IMG/VR virus record: IMGVR_UViG_3300032236_001858
DNA length: 64,000 nt
Strand: one strand, 5' to 3'
Source of the DNA: a virus
Taxonomy: Duplodnaviria > Heunggongvirae > Uroviricota > Caudoviricetes
Shown: in pieces, positions 6,520 to 47,559 of the stretch
Layout: the number at the start of each line of letters is the position of its first letter
Numbering within the stretch: position 1 is the stretch's first letter
Notes under the pieces: generated by a model
Seen by the model: only the letters and a program-made list of their open reading frames with translations
What the model was told of the DNA's origin: nothing
The model's database searches: none
Position numbers and translations under genes: made by a program

Positions 6520-6567
6520 TATATTTGTAAAAAATAAGAAAAGGGACTAAACTTTTTTAATATATAC
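6520..6567 (+). promoter_or_regulatory. tandem promoter block (TAnnTTTG + AAAAGGGAC..CTTTT + TAATATATA) upstream of tRNA-fMet
   Basis: Near-identical block recurs at 30967-31016 and 46548-46598. Confidence 0.7.
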
Positions 6568-6584
6568 ACATACAATAAAAACAT

Positions 6585-6656
6585 TGCGGGGTAGAGAAGA
6601 GGCATCTCGCCAGGCTCATAACCTGGAGGTCAGTGGTTCGAATCCACTCCCCGCTA
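6585..6656 (+). tRNA. tRNA-fMet (CAT)
   Basis: Cloverleaf, CCAGG-CT CAT AA-CCTGG, unpaired 1:72, A73. Confidence 0.9.
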
Positions 6657-6820: not shown

Positions 6821-6898
6821 ATGACAACTATTACTAACATAGCGTATTATTATGAGGGAGAGCGTAGCTCAAACGTCAGACTAATGTCTATGTCGTAA
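6821..6898 (+). CDS. attenuator leader peptide A (Tyr/Glu): MTTITNIAYYYEGERSSNVRLMSMS
   Basis: TAT TAT TAT GAG GGA GAG run; GTCAGACT (6875-6882) is complementary to the terminator 5' arm. Confidence 0.85.
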   Translation: MTTITNIAYYYEGERSSNVRLMSMS

Positions 6899-6920
6899 TG
6901 GTTTCATTATGATATTTTCT

Positions 6921-6956
6921 AACCCAGTCTGACTTTCAGACTGGGTTTTTTGTTTT
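6921..6956 (+). terminator. attenuator terminator A
   Basis: AACCCAGTCTGA-CTT-TCAGACTGGGTT + T tract. Confidence 0.9.
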
Positions 6957-7996: not shown

Positions 7997-8061
7997 CAAA
8001 AATAAAAAAAATTAAAAGGGAAGACAAAACTTTTTATATATACATTAATATAATTAAAACG

Positions 8062-8142
8062 ATGAAAAATTTAACTAACATATCAACAGCAATCATAGGA
8101 GGCGGCGCGGGAGCGAATGTCACTGGCTGGACTATGTTATAA
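8062..8142 (+). CDS. attenuator leader peptide B (Gly/Ala/Ile): MKNLTNISTAIIGGGAGANVTGWTML
   Basis: ATC ATA GGA GGC GGC GCG GGA GCG run; TCACTGGCTGG (8120-8130) pairs 11 bp with the terminator 5' arm. Confidence 0.87.
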   Translation: MKNLTNISTAIIGGGAGANVTGWTML

Positions 8143-8166
8143 TCTTTCATCAAAAGAATTAAACGT

Positions 8167-8200
8167 AACCCAGTCAGTGAAAATTGACTGGGTTTTTTTA
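8167..8200 (+). terminator. attenuator terminator B
   Basis: AACCCAGTCA-GTGAAAAT-TGACTGGGTT + T tract. Confidence 0.9.
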
Positions 8201-30416: not shown

Positions 30417-30448
30417 AAAAAGAGGAAGTTAAAAACTTCCTCTTTTTT
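30417..30448. terminator. bidirectional terminator
   Basis: AAAAAGAGGAAGT-TAAAA-ACTTCCTCTTTTTT. Confidence 0.85.
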
Positions 30449-30782
30449 ATCTTATTAAAGTAACATAACCTTTTTGAGCCATCATAGTTCCATCACAATC
30501 ATATGTGATATACCAGTTATAAATTCCTAAATCTTGAACAACTCCATTAAAAGTTCCATCCCATCTTTTATCATTTAATTGAGATTCAAAAACGGTTTGA
30601 CCCCATTTATTTTTAATTATAAAATTTAATATTTTATAATGATTACCAATTGGTCCAAAGGAATCGTTTTTACCATCATTATTTGGTGTAAAAGCGGATG
30701 GTAATGATAAAACACAAGATTGAGATCTACCTAAATTAATAACACCTATTAAAAGCGCTATCATAAGCAATGTTTTTTTCAT
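30447..30782 (-). CDS. stand-alone T9SS type-B C-terminal domain with signal peptide
   Basis: Signal peptide followed directly by LPSAFTPNNDGKND..WGQTVF..WDG..GYVTLIR. Confidence 0.82.
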   Translation of the reverse strand: MKKTLLMIALLIGVINLGRSQSCVLSLPSAFTPNNDGKNDSFGPIGNHYKILNFIIKNKWGQTVFESQLNDKRWDGTFNGVVQDLGIYNWYITYDCDGTMMAQKGYVTLIR

Positions 30783-30966: not shown

Positions 30967-31016
30967 TAATTTTGTATAAAATAAGTCAAAAGGGACAAAA
31001 ACTTTTTAATATATAC
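30967..31016 (+). promoter_or_regulatory. tandem promoter block upstream of leader C
   Basis: TAATTTTG...AAAAGGGACAAAAACTTTTTAATATATAC. Confidence 0.7.
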
Positions 31017-31020
31017 AACA

Positions 31021-31128
31021 ATGACAACAATGAATTTAAATATGAATATGAATCTAACGGTGGTGCTTAATACATTATGTATTAGACGCTCTGAGGGCTT
31101 CGTCATATCTAAACGATTTGTTGACTAA
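31021..31128 (+). CDS. attenuator leader peptide C: MTTMNLNMNMNLTVVLNTLCIRRSEGFVISKRFVD
   Basis: First 21 codons are all M/T/N/L/V/C/I; TCTGAGGGCTTCG (31090-31102) is complementary to CGAAACCCTCAGA. Confidence 0.87.
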   Translation: MTTMNLNMNMNLTVVLNTLCIRRSEGFVISKRFVD

Positions 31129-31160
31129 ATGTATAACAAATTTTATAAAGGATAAAATCG

Positions 31161-31193
31161 AAACCCTCAGACAAAAAATCTGAGGGTTTTTTT
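31161..31193 (+). terminator. attenuator terminator C
   Basis: AAACCCTCAGA-CAAAAAA-TCTGAGGGTTT + T tract. Confidence 0.9.
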
Positions 31194-31208
31194 ATATGTA
31201 ATAAATTT

Positions 31209-31280
31209 GGGGTGGTAGCTTAATGGTGAAGCAATCGGCTGTTAACCGATAGATTATAGGTTCGAATCCTATCCACCCCG
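31209..31280 (+). tRNA. tRNA-Asn (GTT)
   Basis: ATCGG-CT GTT AA-CCGAT, G73. Confidence 0.9.
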
Positions 31281-31291
31281 CAAAAATAAAC

Positions 31292-31376
31292 TGGTAGGTA
31301 CCCGAGCGGTCTTCAGGGACTAGTCTGATATACTAGGTGAGAAATCACGACGTGGGTTCAAATCCCACCCTACCAA
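31292..31376 (+). tRNA. tRNA-Ile (GAT) with long variable arm
   Basis: CTAGT-CT GAT AT-ACTAG; V-arm GTGA-GAAA-TCAC. Confidence 0.8.
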
Positions 31377-31382
31377 CAACAT

Positions 31383-31454
31383 TCACTGGTAGCTCAGAGG
31401 CAGAGCAACCGCCTGTTAAGCGGTAGGTCGGGATATCGTAATTCACCCAGTGAG
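31383..31454 (+). tRNA. tRNA-Asn (GTT), weak T arm
   Basis: ACCGC-CT GTT AA-GCGGT; T loop ATCGTAA. Confidence 0.75.
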
Positions 31455-31460
31455 CAAAAC

Positions 31461-31539
31461 GCCTCAGTAGCCGAGGTCGCCTTCTAAGCGACTAATCGTA
31501 ACGGAACTGAAAATGTAGGTTCGAATCCTACCTGGGGTA
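31461..31539 (+). ncRNA. D-armless tRNA-like RNA, anticodon TCT
   Basis: GCCTCAG/CTGGGGT-A, GTCGC-CT TCT AA-GCGAC, canonical T arm, 8 nt in place of the D arm. Confidence 0.7.
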
Positions 31540-31594
31540 CAAAAAAAAGGGACACTAGTCTTATTAATATATAAGTAAAATGTAGGTTTGTATT

Positions 31595-32425
31595 ATGTTA
31601 GACTTTGAAAATATTCAAAAAGACTTTGAAAGTGGTCTTTTTTATCAAAAAGATATACTAATTAAGTATAGTATATCAATTAAAAAATTAAGAACTTTTG
31701 TAAAAAAAGGTTTATTGAATAAAGAAAATTGGAAATTAAAAAAATATGAAGTAAAAAGAGAAACAAAAAAGTTAATATCAGAAGGTAGAAAAAAATGGTT
31801 GAAAGAAAATACATCTAAACATCCTTGGAGAAATGGAAATAAATCTAAGCCTTGTGAGGAGTTTAAGAAATTCTTAAAAAGTAGGAATATTTTCTTTTTG
31901 GAAGAGGTTATGATTTCAAAAGAAAGATTCTATTCGGTTGATATTTTAATACCTGAGTTCACTTCGGTTGTAGAAATTAATGGTAATCAACATTATAAAT
32001 CTAATGGAGAACTTAAAGATTACTATAGTGAAAGAAATAGTTTTATAAAAAATAAAGGATGGTCGATATATGAAGTACACTACTCAATTGTTTATAATTT
32101 AGAAATGTGTGATTCTATTTTAGAAAATATTAAAAATAATAATAAAATCGATATACCATTTTATATAAAAAATAAGAAAGAAAAAAAATATAAGAATAGG
32201 GAAGAGTACTGGAATAAAAGAAAAATTAATAAATTGAATAGTTATAGTGAAAGATTAAATGAATTAAAAAACAGTAGTATAGATTTTAAAAAGATTGGAT
32301 GGGTTAAACTAGCATCTGAGATATTAAAAGTTAAAAATGTAAATAAACTATTAAAAGAAATCGATCCAGAATTTTATAAAAATTGTTATAAAAGAAAACA
32401 AAATGCCGAGGTGGTGGAATGGTAG
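31595..32425 (+). CDS. free-standing DUF559/Vsr-like endonuclease inserted in the tRNA array (probable homing endonuclease)
   Basis: YSVDILIPE..VVEINGNQHY; Lys-rich; stop codon lies inside the tRNA-Leu D loop. Confidence 0.75.
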   Translation: MLDFENIQKDFESGLFYQKDILIKYSISIKKLRTFVKKGLLNKENWKLKKYEVKRETKKLISEGRKKWLKENTSKHPWRNGNKSKPCEEFKKFLKSRNIFFLEEVMISKERFYSVDILIPEFTSVVEINGNQHYKSNGELKDYYSERNSFIKNKGWSIYEVHYSIVYNLEMCDSILENIKNNNKIDIPFYIKNKKEKKYKNREEYWNKRKINKLNSYSERLNELKNSSIDFKKIGWVKLASEILKVKNVNKLLKEIDPEFYKNCYKRKQNAEVVEW

Positions 32426-32487
32426 ACACGCTAGCCTTAGAAGCTAGTACCCGCAAGGGTGTGTGGGTTCGAGTCCCACCCTCGGTA
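32405..32487 (+). tRNA. tRNA-Leu (TAG)
   Basis: CTAGC-CT TAG AA-GCTAG, long V-arm. Confidence 0.92.
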
Positions 32488-32512
32488 CTGAAGTGAAACG
32501 AAAGTTCACTAC
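32487..32512 (+). repeat. 26-nt hairpin repeat after tRNA-Leu (copy 1)
   Basis: ACTGAAGTGAAACGAAAGTTCACTAC, identical at 33320. Confidence 0.8.
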
Positions 32513-32521
32513 AAAAAAAAT

Positions 32522-32607
32522 TGATAGGTTGCCGTAGTGGCCGAACGGTCCGGACTGTTAATCCGGTGACGAATAGTCCATCGTGGGTTCGAATCCCACC
32601 CTGTCAG
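32522..32607 (+). tRNA. tRNA-Asn (GTT) with long variable arm
   Basis: CCGGA-CT GTT AA-TCCGG; V-arm GAC-GAATA-GTC; U1:A72, G73. Confidence 0.82.
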
Positions 32608-32614
32608 CAAATAT

Positions 32615-32686
32615 AGTCCTGTAGCTTAATGGGAAAGCGCTTGCCTTACATGCAAGAGAGAGTCGGATCGTTACCGACCAGGACTA
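32615..32686 (+). tRNA. tRNA-Val (TAC)
   Basis: CTTGC-CT TAC AT-GCAAG; T loop ATCGTTA. Confidence 0.88.
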
Positions 32687-32692
32687 CAAAAT

Positions 32693-32766
32693 TGGACTGT
32701 AGCTCATTTGGTTAGAGCGCCACGCTGATACCGTGGAGGTGGTCGGATCGTAACCGACCAGTCCAA
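32693..32766 (+). tRNA. tRNA-Ile (GAT)
   Basis: CCACG-CT GAT AC-CGTGG; T loop ATCGTAA. Confidence 0.88.
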
Positions 32767-32772
32767 CAACAA

Positions 32773-32856
32773 GGTACTATGGCCGAGTGGAGTCTTTAAG
32801 ACGGGAGGCAGTGGTCTGCAAAACTTCTCACACTGGTTCGAATCCAGTTAGTACCT
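32773..32856 (+). tRNA. tRNA-Cys (GCA) with hairpin inserted in the D loop
   Basis: CT GCA AA loop, U73, D-loop insert GTCT-TTA-AGAC. Confidence 0.8.
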
Positions 32857-32861
32857 CAAAC

Positions 32862-32933
32862 GCTTCTTAAGCATTAATGGTGATGCACTAGTCTTGTAAA
32901 CTAGAGAAATCGGATCGTTACCGGTAAGAAGCT
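32862..32933 (+). tRNA. tRNA-Thr (TGT)
   Basis: CTAGT-CT TGT AA-ACTAG; T loop ATCGTTA. Confidence 0.88.
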
Positions 32934-32939
32934 CTAAAT

Positions 32940-33011
32940 TGTTCTGTAGCTCAATGGTAGAGCGCTTCTGTGACATGGAAGAGGTAGTCGGATCGTTACC
33001 GACCAGGACAA
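32940..33011 (+). tRNA. tRNA-Val (GAC)
   Basis: CTTCT-GT GAC AT-GGAAG; T loop ATCGTTA. Confidence 0.85.
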
Positions 33012-33025
33012 CAAAATAATGGATG

Positions 33026-33111
33026 GTGATTAAGAGTGTTACTTCGTGAAATGGTATACACATTTGTCTTAAAAACAAACTTTTGAGGGTTCAAGTCCCT
33101 CAGTAAAATCA
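33026..33111 (+). pseudogene. degenerate tRNA-Leu (TAA)-like element
   Basis: Leu-type D arm, TTTGT-CT TAA AA-ACAAA and T arm, but no V-arm and an interrupted acceptor stem. Confidence 0.5.
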
Positions 33112-33136
33112 CTCTTTGAACTTTCCTCCATTATAT

Positions 33137-33220
33137 GCCGATGTGGCTCAGTGGCGACAGCACTGGTTTTGTAAACCAGAGACGAATAGTCCAACGGGGG
33201 TTCGAGTCCCTCCATCGGCT
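33137..33220 (+). tRNA. tRNA-Thr (TGT) with long variable arm
   Basis: CTGGT-TT TGT AA-ACCAG; V-arm GAC-GAATA-GTC. Confidence 0.82.
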
Positions 33221-33235
33221 CAAAATAAATCACCT

Positions 33236-33320
33236 GCCTGGGTGGTGGAACGGTAGACACGCTGGACTTAAAATCCAGTGGGCAGTAATGCCCGTGAGGG
33301 TTCGAGTCCCTCTCCAGGTA
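33236..33320 (+). tRNA. tRNA-Leu (TAA)
   Basis: CTGGA-CT TAA AA-TCCAG, long V-arm. Confidence 0.92.
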
Positions 33321-33345
33321 CTGAAGTGAAACGAAAGTTCACTAC
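33320..33345 (+). repeat. 26-nt hairpin repeat after tRNA-Leu (copy 2)
   Basis: Identical to 32487-32512. Confidence 0.8.
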
Positions 33346-33351
33346 TAAATT

Positions 33352-33422
33352 ATTGGGATAGTTTAATGGTAAATCGTGGGCCTGATATGCCCGTGTTCTT
33401 GGTTCGATTCCAGGTCTCAATA
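33352..33422 (+). tRNA. tRNA-Ile (GAT)
   Basis: GGGC-CT GAT AT-GCCC. Confidence 0.8.
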
Positions 33423-33427
33423 CAAAC

Positions 33428-33499
33428 TTCGATATGGCCTATTGGTAGGGTGCAGGGGGACATGTTCCTGAGGACTTGGTTCGATTCCAGGTATCGATA
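33428..33499 (+). pseudogene. tRNA with aberrant 8-nt anticodon loop (Val GAC- or Met-derived)
   Basis: Intact acceptor and T arms; CAGGG-GGACATGT-TCCTG. Confidence 0.5.
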
Positions 33500-33506
33500 C
33501 AAACAT

Positions 33507-33593
33507 CGCGGGGTAGAGTAGAGGTCAAACTCACTGGGCTCATAACCCAGGGTTGCGCAAGTGACACGTCAGGTTCGAATCCTGCCCCCGCTA
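33507..33593 (+). tRNA. initiator-type tRNA-Met (CAT) with long variable arm
   Basis: C1:U72 mismatch, CTGGG-CT CAT AA-CCCAG with three G:C pairs, extended V region. Confidence 0.8.
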
Positions 33594-33599
33594 CAACAA

Positions 33600-33672
33600 G
33601 CAGTCATCGTATAGTAGGTGATTACACCACCTTGGTACGGTGGAGATTCCGGTTCGAATCCGGGTGATTGCT
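33600..33672 (+). tRNA. tRNA-Thr (GGT)
   Basis: CCACC-TT GGT AC-GGTGG. Confidence 0.88.
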
Positions 33673-33677
33673 CAAAT

Positions 33678-33758
33678 GCCCAGATGGTGGAATGGTATAC
33701 ACGCCAGTCTAAGAAGCTGGTTCCTTCGGGATTGAGAGTTCGAGTCTCTCTCTGGGCA
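33678..33758 (+). tRNA. tRNA-Leu (AAG)
   Basis: CCAGT-CT AAG AA-GCTGG, Leu-type D and V arms. Confidence 0.88.
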
Positions 33759-33766
33759 CAACATAC

Positions 33767-33851
33767 GCCGGTGTGATCCGATGTGGTAATGGAGTTCGGC
33801 TCATATCCGAATTGGTTTATCCTATTGCTGGTTCGACTCCAGCCACCGGTA
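33767..33851 (+). tRNA. tRNA-Met or Ile2 (CAT) with extended variable region
   Basis: TTCGG-CT CAT AT-CCGAA; identity not resolvable by eye. Confidence 0.72.
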
Positions 33852-33856
33852 CAAAT

Positions 33857-33937
33857 GTCAGAATGGTGGAATGGTATACACGCTAGTTTCAAAAACTAGT
33901 GCCGAAAGGTATGAGAGTTCAAATCTCTCTTCTGATA
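33857..33937 (+). tRNA. tRNA-Leu (CAA)
   Basis: CTAGT-TT CAA AA-ACTAG, V-arm GCC-GAAA-GGT. Confidence 0.9.
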
Positions 33938-33959
33938 CTCGATAAAATAAAAAATAAAA

Positions 33960-34241
33960 ATGGAAAAGATTATCGACATCGTTAGAGATAACGTTGCAAG
34001 ATTCGACTGGGCTTCTGAAGGAGTCCTCTACTACAAAGTAGAAACTGAAAAATATATCTATCACTTCCCAGTAGATATGAATAACAAAGAAGATGTGGGA
34101 ACAGCTAATTTTGAATCAGAACATAAGGCTATAAATCTTATGAGATATTTAAGAAAAGCATCAGAAAACTTAGAAAAAATTAAAAACGATTCAGGTACGC
34201 CTGATTGGAAAAAGACATTAAGAGTTACACAAAAAGTATGA
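33960..34241 (+). CDS. hypothetical protein
   Basis: 93-aa ORF coupled (ATGA) to LeuRS. Confidence 0.7.
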   Translation: MEKIIDIVRDNVARFDWASEGVLYYKVETEKYIYHFPVDMNNKEDVGTANFESEHKAINLMRYLRKASENLEKIKNDSGTPDWKKTLRVTQKV

Positions 34242-35503
34242 AAGATGAAAAGTATATATGCGTTATGTTTCCTTACCCAAGTGGTTCGGGATTGCATGTA
34301 GGTCACTTTTATAATTATGCTATAATTGATTCTTATTGTAGATACTTTAAATACAAAGGTCAACAAGTTTTTCAACCTTTTGGTTATGATGCCTTTGGTT
34401 TGCCGGCTGAAAACTATGCTAGAAAAGTAGGTCGTGATGCTAAAGATGTTACCTATGAAAACATCAGTCAATTTAGAAAACAGATGGAAAAGATGGATAC
34501 CAACTATCAAGAAATGTTGGTAACATCTGATCCTTCTTATCAAAAATGGACACAATGGTTGTTTTTGAAATTGAAAGAACATGGCTTGGCTTATAAAAAA
34601 GATGGTGAAGTAAATTGGTGTCCTTCTTGTGAAACCGTATTGGCTCGTGAACAAGTTAAATCTGATTGTTGTGAAAGATGTTCAACTAAGGTAGAAATGA
34701 AAACAATGAATCAGTGGTACTTTAAGATTACTGATTATAAAGAACGTTTGATTAAAAACTTGGATTGGATAGATTATCCAAAATCAACTATTAACGCGCA
34801 AAGAATGTGGTTGGAAAACTTGCACGATTGGTGTGTTTCTCGTCAAAGAAAATGGGGCTGTCCAATTCCAATAGAAGGTGAAACCGATACAATGGATACA
34901 TTTGTAGATTCTTCATTTTACTATGTTAGATATTGTGATGCTACTAATGATAATGAATTGTGTGCTAAAGATAAATATAAACAAGTAGATGTTTATGTTG
35001 GTGGTAATGAACACGCTTGTATGCACTTGATTTATGCTCGTTTTATTAATATGTTTTTGTATGATATTGGTGTTGTTTCAGAGGAAGAACCATTTAAGAA
35101 AGTTATACATCAAGGTATAATTTTGAACGAAGGTGAAAAAATGTCTAAAACAAAAGGTAATGTTATTAATCCAGATGATTATGACTCTGATGAATTGAGA
35201 TTTTATATGATGTTTATTGGTCATTATTTTGATGGTGGTTCTTGGTCTGACCAAAATATAGCTGGTATTAAAAGATTTATTAGTCGTTTTAAGGAGTGGA
35301 TGTCAAGAGAAGGTTCTGATACTTTTGATATTGAATCATTTAAGAAAAAAATATTTAACTACACTGAGAGTTTTAAGTTTAATAAAGTTGTTAGTGAGTT
35401 TATGACAATAGTTAATCAAAATAGAACTAAAAACATAACACCTGAGATAAAAAAAGAATTGATTGAATTGATTAAGGTGTATATGCCTGGAATTAAAATT
35501 TAA
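34238..35503 (+). CDS. leuS: minimal leucyl-tRNA synthetase (421 aa)
   Basis: MFPYPSG..LHVGH, GYDAFGLPAEN, Zn knuckle CPSC/CERC, DWCVSRQRKWG, MDTFVDSSFY, GGNEHA, KMSKT. Confidence 0.9.
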   Translation: MKDEKYICVMFPYPSGSGLHVGHFYNYAIIDSYCRYFKYKGQQVFQPFGYDAFGLPAENYARKVGRDAKDVTYENISQFRKQMEKMDTNYQEMLVTSDPSYQKWTQWLFLKLKEHGLAYKKDGEVNWCPSCETVLAREQVKSDCCERCSTKVEMKTMNQWYFKITDYKERLIKNLDWIDYPKSTINAQRMWLENLHDWCVSRQRKWGCPIPIEGETDTMDTFVDSSFYYVRYCDATNDNELCAKDKYKQVDVYVGGNEHACMHLIYARFINMFLYDIGVVSEEEPFKKVIHQGIILNEGEKMSKTKGNVINPDDYDSDELRFYMMFIGHYFDGGSWSDQNIAGIKRFISRFKEWMSREGSDTFDIESFKKKIFNYTESFKFNKVVSEFMTIVNQNRTKNITPEIKKELIELIKVYMPGIKI

Positions 35504-35506
35504 ATT

Positions 35507-35535
35507 AAAAAAGTCCTCTATTTTAGAGGACTTTT
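35507..35535. terminator. bidirectional terminator
   Basis: AAAAAAGTCCTCTA-TTT-TAGAGGACTTTT. Confidence 0.85.
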
Positions 35536-46547: not shown

Positions 46548-46598
46548 TATATTTGTATAAAATAAGAACAAAAGGAACAAAAACTTTTTAATATATAC
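46548..46598 (+). promoter_or_regulatory. tandem promoter block upstream of leader D
   Basis: TTTG(46525)..TATATTTG...AAAAGGAACAAAAACTTTTTAATATATAC. Confidence 0.72.
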
Positions 46599-46602
46599 AG
46601 AA

Positions 46603-46701
46603 ATGAAAAACTTAAACTTAAATATCGTTAACCCTCAACCGCAAGTTGTAATCGATCAGGATCCTGGTTCGAAAGGGGCTAACTATGTGGTTTTAAGTTA
46701 A
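46603..46701 (+). CDS. attenuator leader peptide D (Pro/Gln/Asp): MKNLNLNIVNPQPQVVIDQDPGSKGANYVVLS
   Basis: CCT CAA CCG CAA .. GAT CAG GAT CCT; GGCTAACT (46677-46684) pairs with AGTTAGTC of the terminator. Confidence 0.83.
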   Translation: MKNLNLNIVNPQPQVVIDQDPGSKGANYVVLS

Positions 46702-46724
46702 AGATATTATAACTATGAAACATT

Positions 46725-46757
46725 ACCCAGTTAGTCGAAAGATTAACTGGGTTTTTT
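46725..46757 (+). terminator. attenuator terminator D
   Basis: ACCCAGTTAGTC-GAAA-GATTAACTGGGT + T tract. Confidence 0.9.
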
Positions 46758-47443: not shown

Positions 47444-47497
47444 ATGAGAACAACAACACAATACCAGCAACAACAACAAATTAATCCAACGGATTGA
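47444..47497 (+). CDS. attenuator leader peptide E (Gln): MRTTTQYQQQQQINPTD
   Basis: CAA TAC CAG CAA CAA CAA CAA; GGATTGA over the stop codon pairs with TCAATCT of the terminator. Confidence 0.88.
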   Translation: MRTTTQYQQQQQINPTD

Positions 47498-47525
47498 TAA
47501 CGGTATCGTATTGTCTAAACTTTAC

Positions 47526-47559
47526 AAACCCTATTCAATCTGATTGAGTAGGGTTTTTT
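47526..47559 (+). terminator. attenuator terminator E
   Basis: AAACCCTATTCAAT-CTG-ATTGAGTAGGGTTT + T tract. Confidence 0.9.

Follow-up and report, generated by a model that had tools for sequence, protein, structure and literature searches.

Leader-peptide attenuation is the textbook device by which bacteria link amino-acid biosynthesis to tRNA charging, and in Escherichia coli the leaders of ilvGMEDA (Ile/Leu/Val), ilvBN, and thr (Thr/Ile) are multivalent attenuators of this kind. The E. coli tufB operon (thrU-tyrU-glyT-thrT-tufB) unites, in one transcript, tRNA genes and, behind them, a gene for a protein of the translation apparatus, and the tRNA cluster of phage T4 harbors the homing endonuclease gene segB. 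T-box riboswitches, marked by a stem I that carries a specifier loop and by the conserved T-box in the bulge of the antiterminator, choose between a terminator and an antiterminator ahead of translation-related genes by binding uncharged tRNA directly, with no open reading frame (ORF) involved. Aminoacyl-tRNA synthetases can be placed under leader-peptide attenuation, as with the pheM leader of E. coli pheST and the His leader before hisS paralogues in bacilli (PMC2965389). Here we describe attenuator C, an element in a 64,000-nucleotide (nt) stretch of DNA (the window) from the virus record IMGVR_UViG_3300032236_001858. It precedes 21 tRNA-like genes and a gene for a half-size leucyl-tRNA synthetase (LeuRS; leuS), and its sequence makes it quite probable that it is a ribosome-mediated transcription attenuator of the trp/his/ilv type. 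This would be a known mechanism in a new form: attenuation applied to tRNA genes, in a virus. A literature search, with subscription-only literature outside its reach, turned up no account of tRNA genes under leader-peptide control. The tRNA-Phe genes pheU and pheV of E. coli were examined for such a leader, and only promoters lie directly upstream of them.

As in the ilvGMEDA, ilvBN, and thr leaders, mixed regulatory codons in a short leader ORF are combined with three alternative helices (1:2, 2:3, and 3:4) and a terminator ahead of the first regulated gene, and the position at which a ribosome stalls would decide among the helices. The likeness to ilvGMEDA/thr attenuation drawn in the original prediction thus holds for the structural features that define the class. 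Unlike those leaders, attenuator C belongs to a phage and has a promoter of the Bacteroidota type, contains seven or eight codon families as opposed to two or three, extends 8 codons beyond region 2, and has tRNA genes (perhaps also a synthetase gene) rather than biosynthetic enzymes as its targets. It would resemble T-boxes in sensing tRNA status but is too short to be one and is built around an ORF. The ORF, the three helices with their conservation and covariation, and the match of codons to anticodons are all read from the sequence. The parts of the element, all on the plus strand, are as follows.

30967 to 31018, plus strand: promoter region, with a TAnnTTTG box of the Bacteroidota type at 30967-30974 and the composite motif AAAGGGAC..TTTTTAATATATA at 30989-31015.
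31021 to 31128, plus strand: leader ORF C, 35 codons plus TAA.
31024 to 31086, plus strand: regulatory codon run, codons 2-22, encoding T, M, N, L, V, C, and I and then AGA, all decodable by anticodons of the array.
31049 to 31064, plus strand: region 1, predicted to pair with region 2 in ribosome-free RNA (1:2; minimum free energy [MFE] folds of -14.4 to -17.0 kcal/mol).
31067 to 31085, plus strand: A/U hairpin of 8 bp in the center of the leader, spanning codons 16-22 (NTLCIR) and seen in the folds; it may serve to pause the polymerase.
31090 to 31102, plus strand: region 2, codons 24-28, the 5' strand of the antiterminator, forming 12 of 13 pairs with 31159-31171 (2:3; -27.2 kcal/mol by folding).
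31159 to 31171, plus strand: region 3, common to the antiterminator and the 5' arm of the terminator.
31160 to 31196, plus strand: intrinsic terminator (3:4), with a 12-bp stem, a 7-nt loop, and a T7 tract (-17.2 kcal/mol by folding).

The terminator lies between the leader and the first tRNA gene, which starts at 31209. Region 2 resembles the 3' arm of the terminator at 12 of 13 positions and can therefore pair with region 3, in agreement with the 12-of-13 antiterminator match noted previously. The antiterminator and the terminator are mutually exclusive, with covariation support. The regulatory codons stand just upstream of the alternative helices, their run stopping 4 nt short of region 2. 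In the absence of a stalled ribosome, region 2 is predicted to be sequestered in the 1:2 helix, 83% of it by nt 29-40 of the leader. For the whole ribosome-free leader, the fold with 1:2 and 3:4 (-42.6 kcal/mol) is preferred over the antiterminator fold (-37.1 kcal/mol).

To define the geometry of sensing, we masked a ribosome footprint codon by codon and computed the probability (P) of 2:3 pairing. This probability was at least 0.9 for an A site at codons 1-20, 0.65 and 0.26 at codons 21 and 22, respectively, and 0 at codons 24-30. Opening of the 1:2 helix begins only once the ribosome reaches about codon 7. The sensing window thus spans codons 7-21, in which each of the seven amino acids is represented, and the cognate codons run exactly up to this geometric limit. 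The geometry agrees with the roughly seven inputs proposed before, since a stall within codons 7-21 would open 1:2 and keep region 2 free. The leader stop codon is located 24 nt past region 2 and 31 nt ahead of region 3. Given this position, basal termination would have to come from a ribosome over region 2 or from 1:2 re-forming behind the ribosome; the 8-codon extension beyond region 2 points to re-formation of 1:2 rather than to a ribosome parked at the stop codon.

The array behind the terminator comprises 21 tRNA-like genes in 31209-33938, identified with ARAGORN and Rfam and by alignment to relatives. They fall into two blocks.

31209 to 31540, plus strand: the first four tRNA-like genes, namely Asn GTT, Ile GAT (86 nt), an Asn GTT variant, and, at 31461-31540, a TCT element that lacks a normal D arm.
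32405 to 33938, plus strand: 17 further tRNA-like genes, in the order Leu, Asn, Val, Ile, Cys, Thr, Val, Leu, Thr, Leu, Ile, CAT-like, Met, Thr, Leu, Met, Leu.

By specificity, there are three genes each for Asn, Ile, and Thr, five for Leu (TAG, TAA twice, AAG, and CAA), and two each for Val and Met, together with a CAT-like element that has an 8-nt anticodon loop, the TCT element, and a Cys(GCA) element. All of the Asn, Ile, Leu, Val, Cys, Thr, and Met tRNAs and the TCT element named in the original prediction are therefore present. The Cys element (32771-32858) was not detected by standard callers; alignment to its positional counterparts identified it as a tRNA-Cys(GCA) whose D loop carries an additional hairpin, and several relatives have an ordinary Cys(GCA) tRNA at this position.

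The leader is matched to this array. As had been claimed, no residues other than M, T, N, L, V, C, and I are specified by codons 1-21, and an arginine codon comes next; codons 22-23 are AGA and CGC. Each of the Leu codons used (TTA, CTA, and CTT) has its anticodon downstream (TAA, TAG, and AAG). Across the 476-kb genome, with its roughly 952,000 six-frame windows, only two runs of at least 21 residues drawn from this seven-letter set were found; the second was an off-frame hydrophobic stretch without a start codon. When the residue set was defined from the tRNAs rather than from the leader, 21 of the 22 codons upstream of region 2 were cognate to independently called tRNAs of the array, compared with 9 expected (binomial, 7e-8). 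The same set made up 44% of the six sister leaders described below, near the expected 40%.

Leader C uses mostly the major codons of the phage (AAT, TTA, ACA, TGT, ATT, and AGA), and the rare codons ACG and GTG occur only where region 1 has to pair. The anticodons of the array likewise decode the major codons of the phage; the switch would thus sample the phage's own decoding demand. These properties also suit an alternative in which the attenuator is a general sensor of translation speed, or a timer, that follows overall ribosome progress and turns on the largest tRNA block late in infection, reporting a shortage of ribosomes, EF-Tu, or tRNA at large, or host shut-off. The seven amino acids account for 38% of all residues in the phage proteome, tandem repeats in the leader never exceed two copies of a codon, and Cys and Ile occur once each. 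We consider this alternative improbable, however, because residues outside the set are missing from the sensing window and because the leaders of other units are clearly codon specific.

Leader C is one of seven leader/terminator units in the genome, five of which lie within the window. The other six are listed here.

6821-6947, 8062-8194, 46603-46752, and 47444-47556 of the window: four sister leader/terminator units.
218458-218617 and 221282-221412 of the genome: two further sister units.

Each leader is enriched for the amino acids of its own array. The seven sets are FHWK, SR, YE, GA, NILVTMC plus AGA, DP, and Q, and jointly they comprise all 20 amino acids. The actual assignment of leaders to arrays is the single best of 5,040 permutations. 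The sister leaders contain stretches such as QQQQQ, SSSSRSS, YYYEGE, and GGGAGA. Behind the Gln leader of unit E lie three tRNA-Gln genes and a gene for GlnRS.

We searched for orthologues in IMG/VR with a 19-nt pattern over the NTLCIR hairpin, which biases the resulting set toward retention of that hairpin; a degenerate 18-nt pattern for the leader start was dropped, as its low complexity gave more than 100 chance matches. Besides LR756502.1, the 19-nt pattern identified orthologous leaders in 11 IMG/VR contigs. Every orthologous leader is followed by a terminator and then by an array of Asn, Ile, Leu, Val, Thr, Met, Cys, and Arg(TCT) tRNAs. To offset the hairpin selection, three more distant genomes were chosen by their tRNA genes only, without use of leader sequence. 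They contain the same system, and their C-type leaders end in TLC(x)IR. By sequence comparison, then, attenuator C recurs in 13 related leaders in other huge-phage contigs, with compensatory changes in the antiterminator.

In an alignment of 10 orthologous leaders, both sides were changed in 6 of the 12 antiterminator pairs. The covariation score was 0.248 as opposed to 0.103 after shuffling, and none of 500 shuffles reached the observed value. Paired cells made up 82.5% for the antiterminator, compared with 21 to 54% when the partner was slid, and 93.9% for the terminator. Region 2 changes in step with altered terminator stems, as in CCCGAAC (L127), CCCCTAA (L121), and CCCTTAG (L128), while the peptide encoded across it varies freely. 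Among the 14 leaders examined by folding, the antiterminator was the MFE structure of the RNA without region 4 in all 14, and the terminator was present in the full-length MFE structure in 13. The predicted 1:2 helix covered 50 to 88% of region 2 in 11 leaders; in the other three it covered 0 to 19%, partly because stray pairs had widened the region scored as region 2.

These comparisons bear on whether there is a switch at all. Short ORFs are plentiful in AT-rich genomes, and equilibrium folds alone do not separate two states, so that the terminator could be a plain leaky terminator or insulator, with the small ORF and the complementarity arising by chance in AT-rich DNA. The genome-wide rarity of the residue run, the permutation test, the covariation, and the recurrence in independent contigs all speak against this, and there is no convergent gene that would require a terminator at this site; we regard the explanation as hardly credible.

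A switch run by something other than the ribosome (a phage antiterminator protein, a T-box-like tRNA, or a small molecule), with the ORF incidental, is very unlikely. The conserved NTLCIR hairpin could bind a protein or RNA, and the leader ORF is only predicted to be translated. Yet leader C matched no Rfam cis-regulatory family, and no T-box (RF00230) was found in the window at the gathering threshold or in 31196-33950 at E values up to 1. The ORF is open in 13 orthologues despite divergence of the sequence 3' of region 2, its start context is that of real genes, and it shows synonymous changes at third positions: three of the four ORF substitutions between the window and its closest relative, L129, are synonymous. 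In addition, leader composition follows the downstream tRNAs in the 7 units here and in more than 25 units of relatives.

Methionine provides the clearest instance of the last point, and it counts against a general speed sensor as well, since leader content tracks array content between lineages. Two relatives have no internal Met codons in the leader and no Met tRNA in that unit. In L140, the C-type unit is split in two.

G004:C1:113300-116500, minus strand, at 306-456 and 1942-2058 of the reverse complement: split C-type unit of L140.

The first unit of L140 has neither Met codons nor a Met tRNA, and the second has a Leu/Met-rich leader before three Leu tRNAs, a Met tRNA, and Arg(CCT). No leader/terminator units were found in the two stretches examined of G002, the record of L114 and a related complete genome (451,956 bp, with direct terminal repeats), which has 42 tRNA matches. 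The system of attenuated units may be restricted to one clade.

On the basis of this anatomy, ribosome-mediated attenuation would proceed as follows. Transcription would begin at the phage promoter motif just upstream, and a ribosome would start on the 35-codon leader at once. If the ribosome moves unhindered, region 2 would be covered or would re-pair with region 1 behind it, the 3:4 terminator would form, and RNA polymerase would halt at the T7 tract, 13 nt ahead of the first tRNA gene. If charged tRNA for Asn, Met, Leu, Thr, Val, Cys, or Ile is scarce, the ribosome would stall at about codons 7-21 and mask region 1; regions 2 and 3 would then pair, the terminator would be blocked, and the tRNA genes would be transcribed. 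Read-through would probably continue into a 93-codon ORF and the mini-LeuRS gene. The outcome would be feedback on decoding capacity, with phage tRNAs made when the most-used codons of the phage are read slowly. What we infer in this scheme is that the leader is translated and that ribosome and polymerase are coupled, as well as which way the switch responds and what triggers it physiologically.

How far control by attenuator C extends depends on the features located downstream.

31546 to 31573, plus strand: internal promoter-like composite motif AAAGGGAC..TTAATATATA, after the fourth tRNA gene; one of five copies in the window.
31595 to 32425, plus strand: ORF of 276 amino acids (aa) inserted in the array, its end overlapping the start of tRNA-Leu(TAG) by 21 nt.
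33960 to 34241, plus strand: 93-aa ORF (phrog_20427, 5.6e-10), its stop codon overlapping the leuS start codon (ATGA).
34238 to 35503, plus strand: leuS, encoding the half-size LeuRS of 421 aa (NCBIfam leuS_bact, 8.6e-119).
35509 to 35535, plus strand: first strong plus-strand terminator after the array, the end of the putative transcription unit.

As previously reported, there is no terminator between the array and the end of leuS: apart from tRNA anticodon stems, no plus-strand intrinsic terminator was found between 31196 and 35509. The 93-codon ORF begins 21 nt past the last tRNA gene. The internal motif is not present in the matching spacer of L010, L122, or L124, and the 276-aa ORF has no homologue at related loci; motif and ORF are thus a recent insertion. 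The ORF has weak family matches only (Pfam RAP, E = 0.0013; phrog_503, E = 0.0007) and probably encodes a homing-type nuclease, an arrangement that recalls segB among the tRNA genes of T4. Motifs of the same kind stand ahead of a bare tRNA gene and of about 25 protein genes, which suggests that the internal copy is a promoter. If so, only the first four tRNAs would be strictly gated by attenuator C, and the other 17 and leuS would receive a second input.

The original prediction placed about 20 tRNA genes and leuS under one multivalent leader. A leader-peptide attenuator whose codons mirror the tRNAs behind it is strongly supported: anatomy, folding energies, and covariation agree, and the arrangement recurs in relatives and in the six sister units. 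It is the extent of control that needs narrowing, with strict gating predicted for the first four tRNAs only and a possible ungated source, the motif at 31546-31573, for the rest. Co-control of leuS is plausible. No terminator intervenes, the start codon overlaps the preceding stop codon, and leuS has no leader of its own, which makes read-through from the array the simplest source of its mRNA. We judge co-transcription of leuS with the array to be somewhat likely, and control of leuS by attenuator C alone to be doubtful.

In the relatives L111, L112, and L002, the leuS homologues are elsewhere in the genome, and each has its own Leu-rich leader and terminator.

L111:5875-5976, L112:5867-5990, and L002:4725-4825: leaders of the separate leuS genes, with runs of 3 to 6 Leu codons and a terminator.

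Attenuation of leuS is therefore a habit of this phage family. The three relatives show for leuS the arrangement known from pheM and pheST, in which a component of the translation apparatus is controlled by a leader for its own amino acid. The window differs in that leuS has no leader of its own and is placed behind 21 tRNA genes and a shared multivalent leader, with the tRNAs also being targets. With respect to co-transcription of tRNA genes and a downstream translation-apparatus gene, the arrangement is like that of the tufB operon; to our knowledge, neither that operon nor the T4 cluster has a leader-peptide attenuator. The genes directly behind the terminator are tRNA genes, and only the distal leuS fits the classical pattern in which an attenuator controls supply or charging of the sensed amino acid. 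Having tRNA genes as targets is the point of novelty and no argument against the mechanism.

Several observations weigh against ribosome-mediated control of the array by attenuator C, or against parts of it. With region 4 absent, 2:3 forms at equilibrium even without a ribosome (P = 0.95), and once region 4 is included the terminator is mostly favored, even when a ribosome is stalled (0.55 to 0.95). The equilibrium fold of the full leader with a masked ribosome gave no clean switch to the antiterminator and was used for geometry only. As equilibrium folds do not discriminate the states, the decision would have to be kinetic, as in classical attenuators. The weight of Cys and Ile as inputs is doubtful, with one codon each, and the tRNA-Cys copy in the window has one U.U mismatch in its anticodon stem. 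A T/N/L/I-rich N-terminal motif is also found in sister leaders with non-cognate arrays, and part of the composition of leader C may be generic. In L128, the leader has Met codons and no Met tRNA was detected in that unit. Through the internal motif, the last 17 tRNAs and leuS are probably also transcribed independently of the attenuator. Finally, the useful trigger is uncertain, as more tRNA gives no help under amino-acid starvation.

Additional tRNA is useful when tRNA itself, as opposed to its amino acid, is in short supply; the switch is therefore likely to respond to host tRNAs that are lost or become insufficient during infection. It is conceivable, and we propose it tentatively, that the seven units together form a complete, codon-resolved decoding-capacity regulon, in which each leader reports a failing host tRNA family and switches on the matching replacement tRNAs. 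Host tRNAs might fail through decay after host shut-off or through cleavage by anticodon-nuclease defence systems, and many of the replacement tRNAs would have unusual shapes that host nucleases might miss. The cognate synthetase would be induced too in unit C (LeuRS) and in unit E (GlnRS). The largest of these sensors would be unit C, with inputs from seven or eight codon families.

If attenuation of the tRNA array is correct, tRNA supply becomes a directly sensed, feedback-controlled quantity, and a concrete answer is offered to the questions of why huge phages carry dozens of tRNAs and when these are used. Leader-peptide attenuation would extend to Bacteroidota phages in an unusually multivalent form. 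The units would be compact, modular, codon-specific sensors of about 180 nt, one per amino-acid group, that could be reused as reporters of decoding capacity. The model also ties in with ongoing studies of defence systems that target tRNA and of the decay of host tRNAs in infection.

Non-standard tRNA shapes are found beside standard copies at ten positions of the array: 31292-31377, 31383-31454, 31461-31540, 32522-32608, 32771-32858, 33037-33110, 33137-33221, 33428-33500, 33508-33592, and 33767-33852. Asn, Ile, Thr, and Met tRNAs occur in forms of 85 to 87 nt with a long extra arm, one Leu(TAA) tRNA of 74 nt has no long arm, and one Asn tRNA has an odd T arm.

The LeuRS scored far higher with the leuS_bact model than with the ValRS, IleRS, and MetRS models, at 398 bits, below the full-length cut-off of 548. 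The class Ia core is present, with HIGH and KMSKS and LeuRS as the best model. The CP1 editing domain, the Leu-specific insertion, and the C-terminal tRNA-binding domain are missing; the alignment to Thermus thermophilus LeuRS (1h3n; 878 aa compared with 421 aa) skips residues of about 259-486 and 580-636. The LeuRS of Mycoplasma mobile (PDB 3ziu, 637 aa) has no editing domain, and the phage enzyme is shorter still. The half-size enzyme may be matched to the unusual tRNA-Leu forms of the phage.

The composite motif at 30989-31015 ends 3 nt upstream of the ATG of leader C and is kept ahead of orthologous leaders. Other copies in the window are at 6540-6566, 8015-8042, 46571-46597, and 31546-31573, for a total of five. 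Motifs of this type stand upstream of leaders B, C, and D and of one leaderless tRNA-Met gene, where no ORF intervenes (6540-6585) and the motif precedes the tRNA by 15 nt. The core TTTTTAATATATA(C)A is also found 2 to 3 nt upstream of the ATG in about 25 ordinary protein genes of this genome. Its placement suggests that TTTTTAATATATA(C)A is a phage promoter yielding leaderless or near-leaderless mRNAs. A further match to TAnnTTTG at 31202, abutting the first tRNA gene, was rejected as a chance match: it is unconserved in relatives, and transcription from it would start inside the tRNA.

The virus record consists of a single contig of 476,236 bp, of which the window is a part. The closest named relatives are LR745206.1 and LR756502.1, uncultured huge phages of 635 and 642 kb. 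The TAnnTTTG promoter boxes and a CHU_C type IX secretion sorting domain in an adjacent protein suggest a host among the Bacteroidota. The protein in question is small, encoded at 30447-30782 on the minus strand (domain match, 2.4e-14), and places this hallmark of Bacteroidota on a phage.

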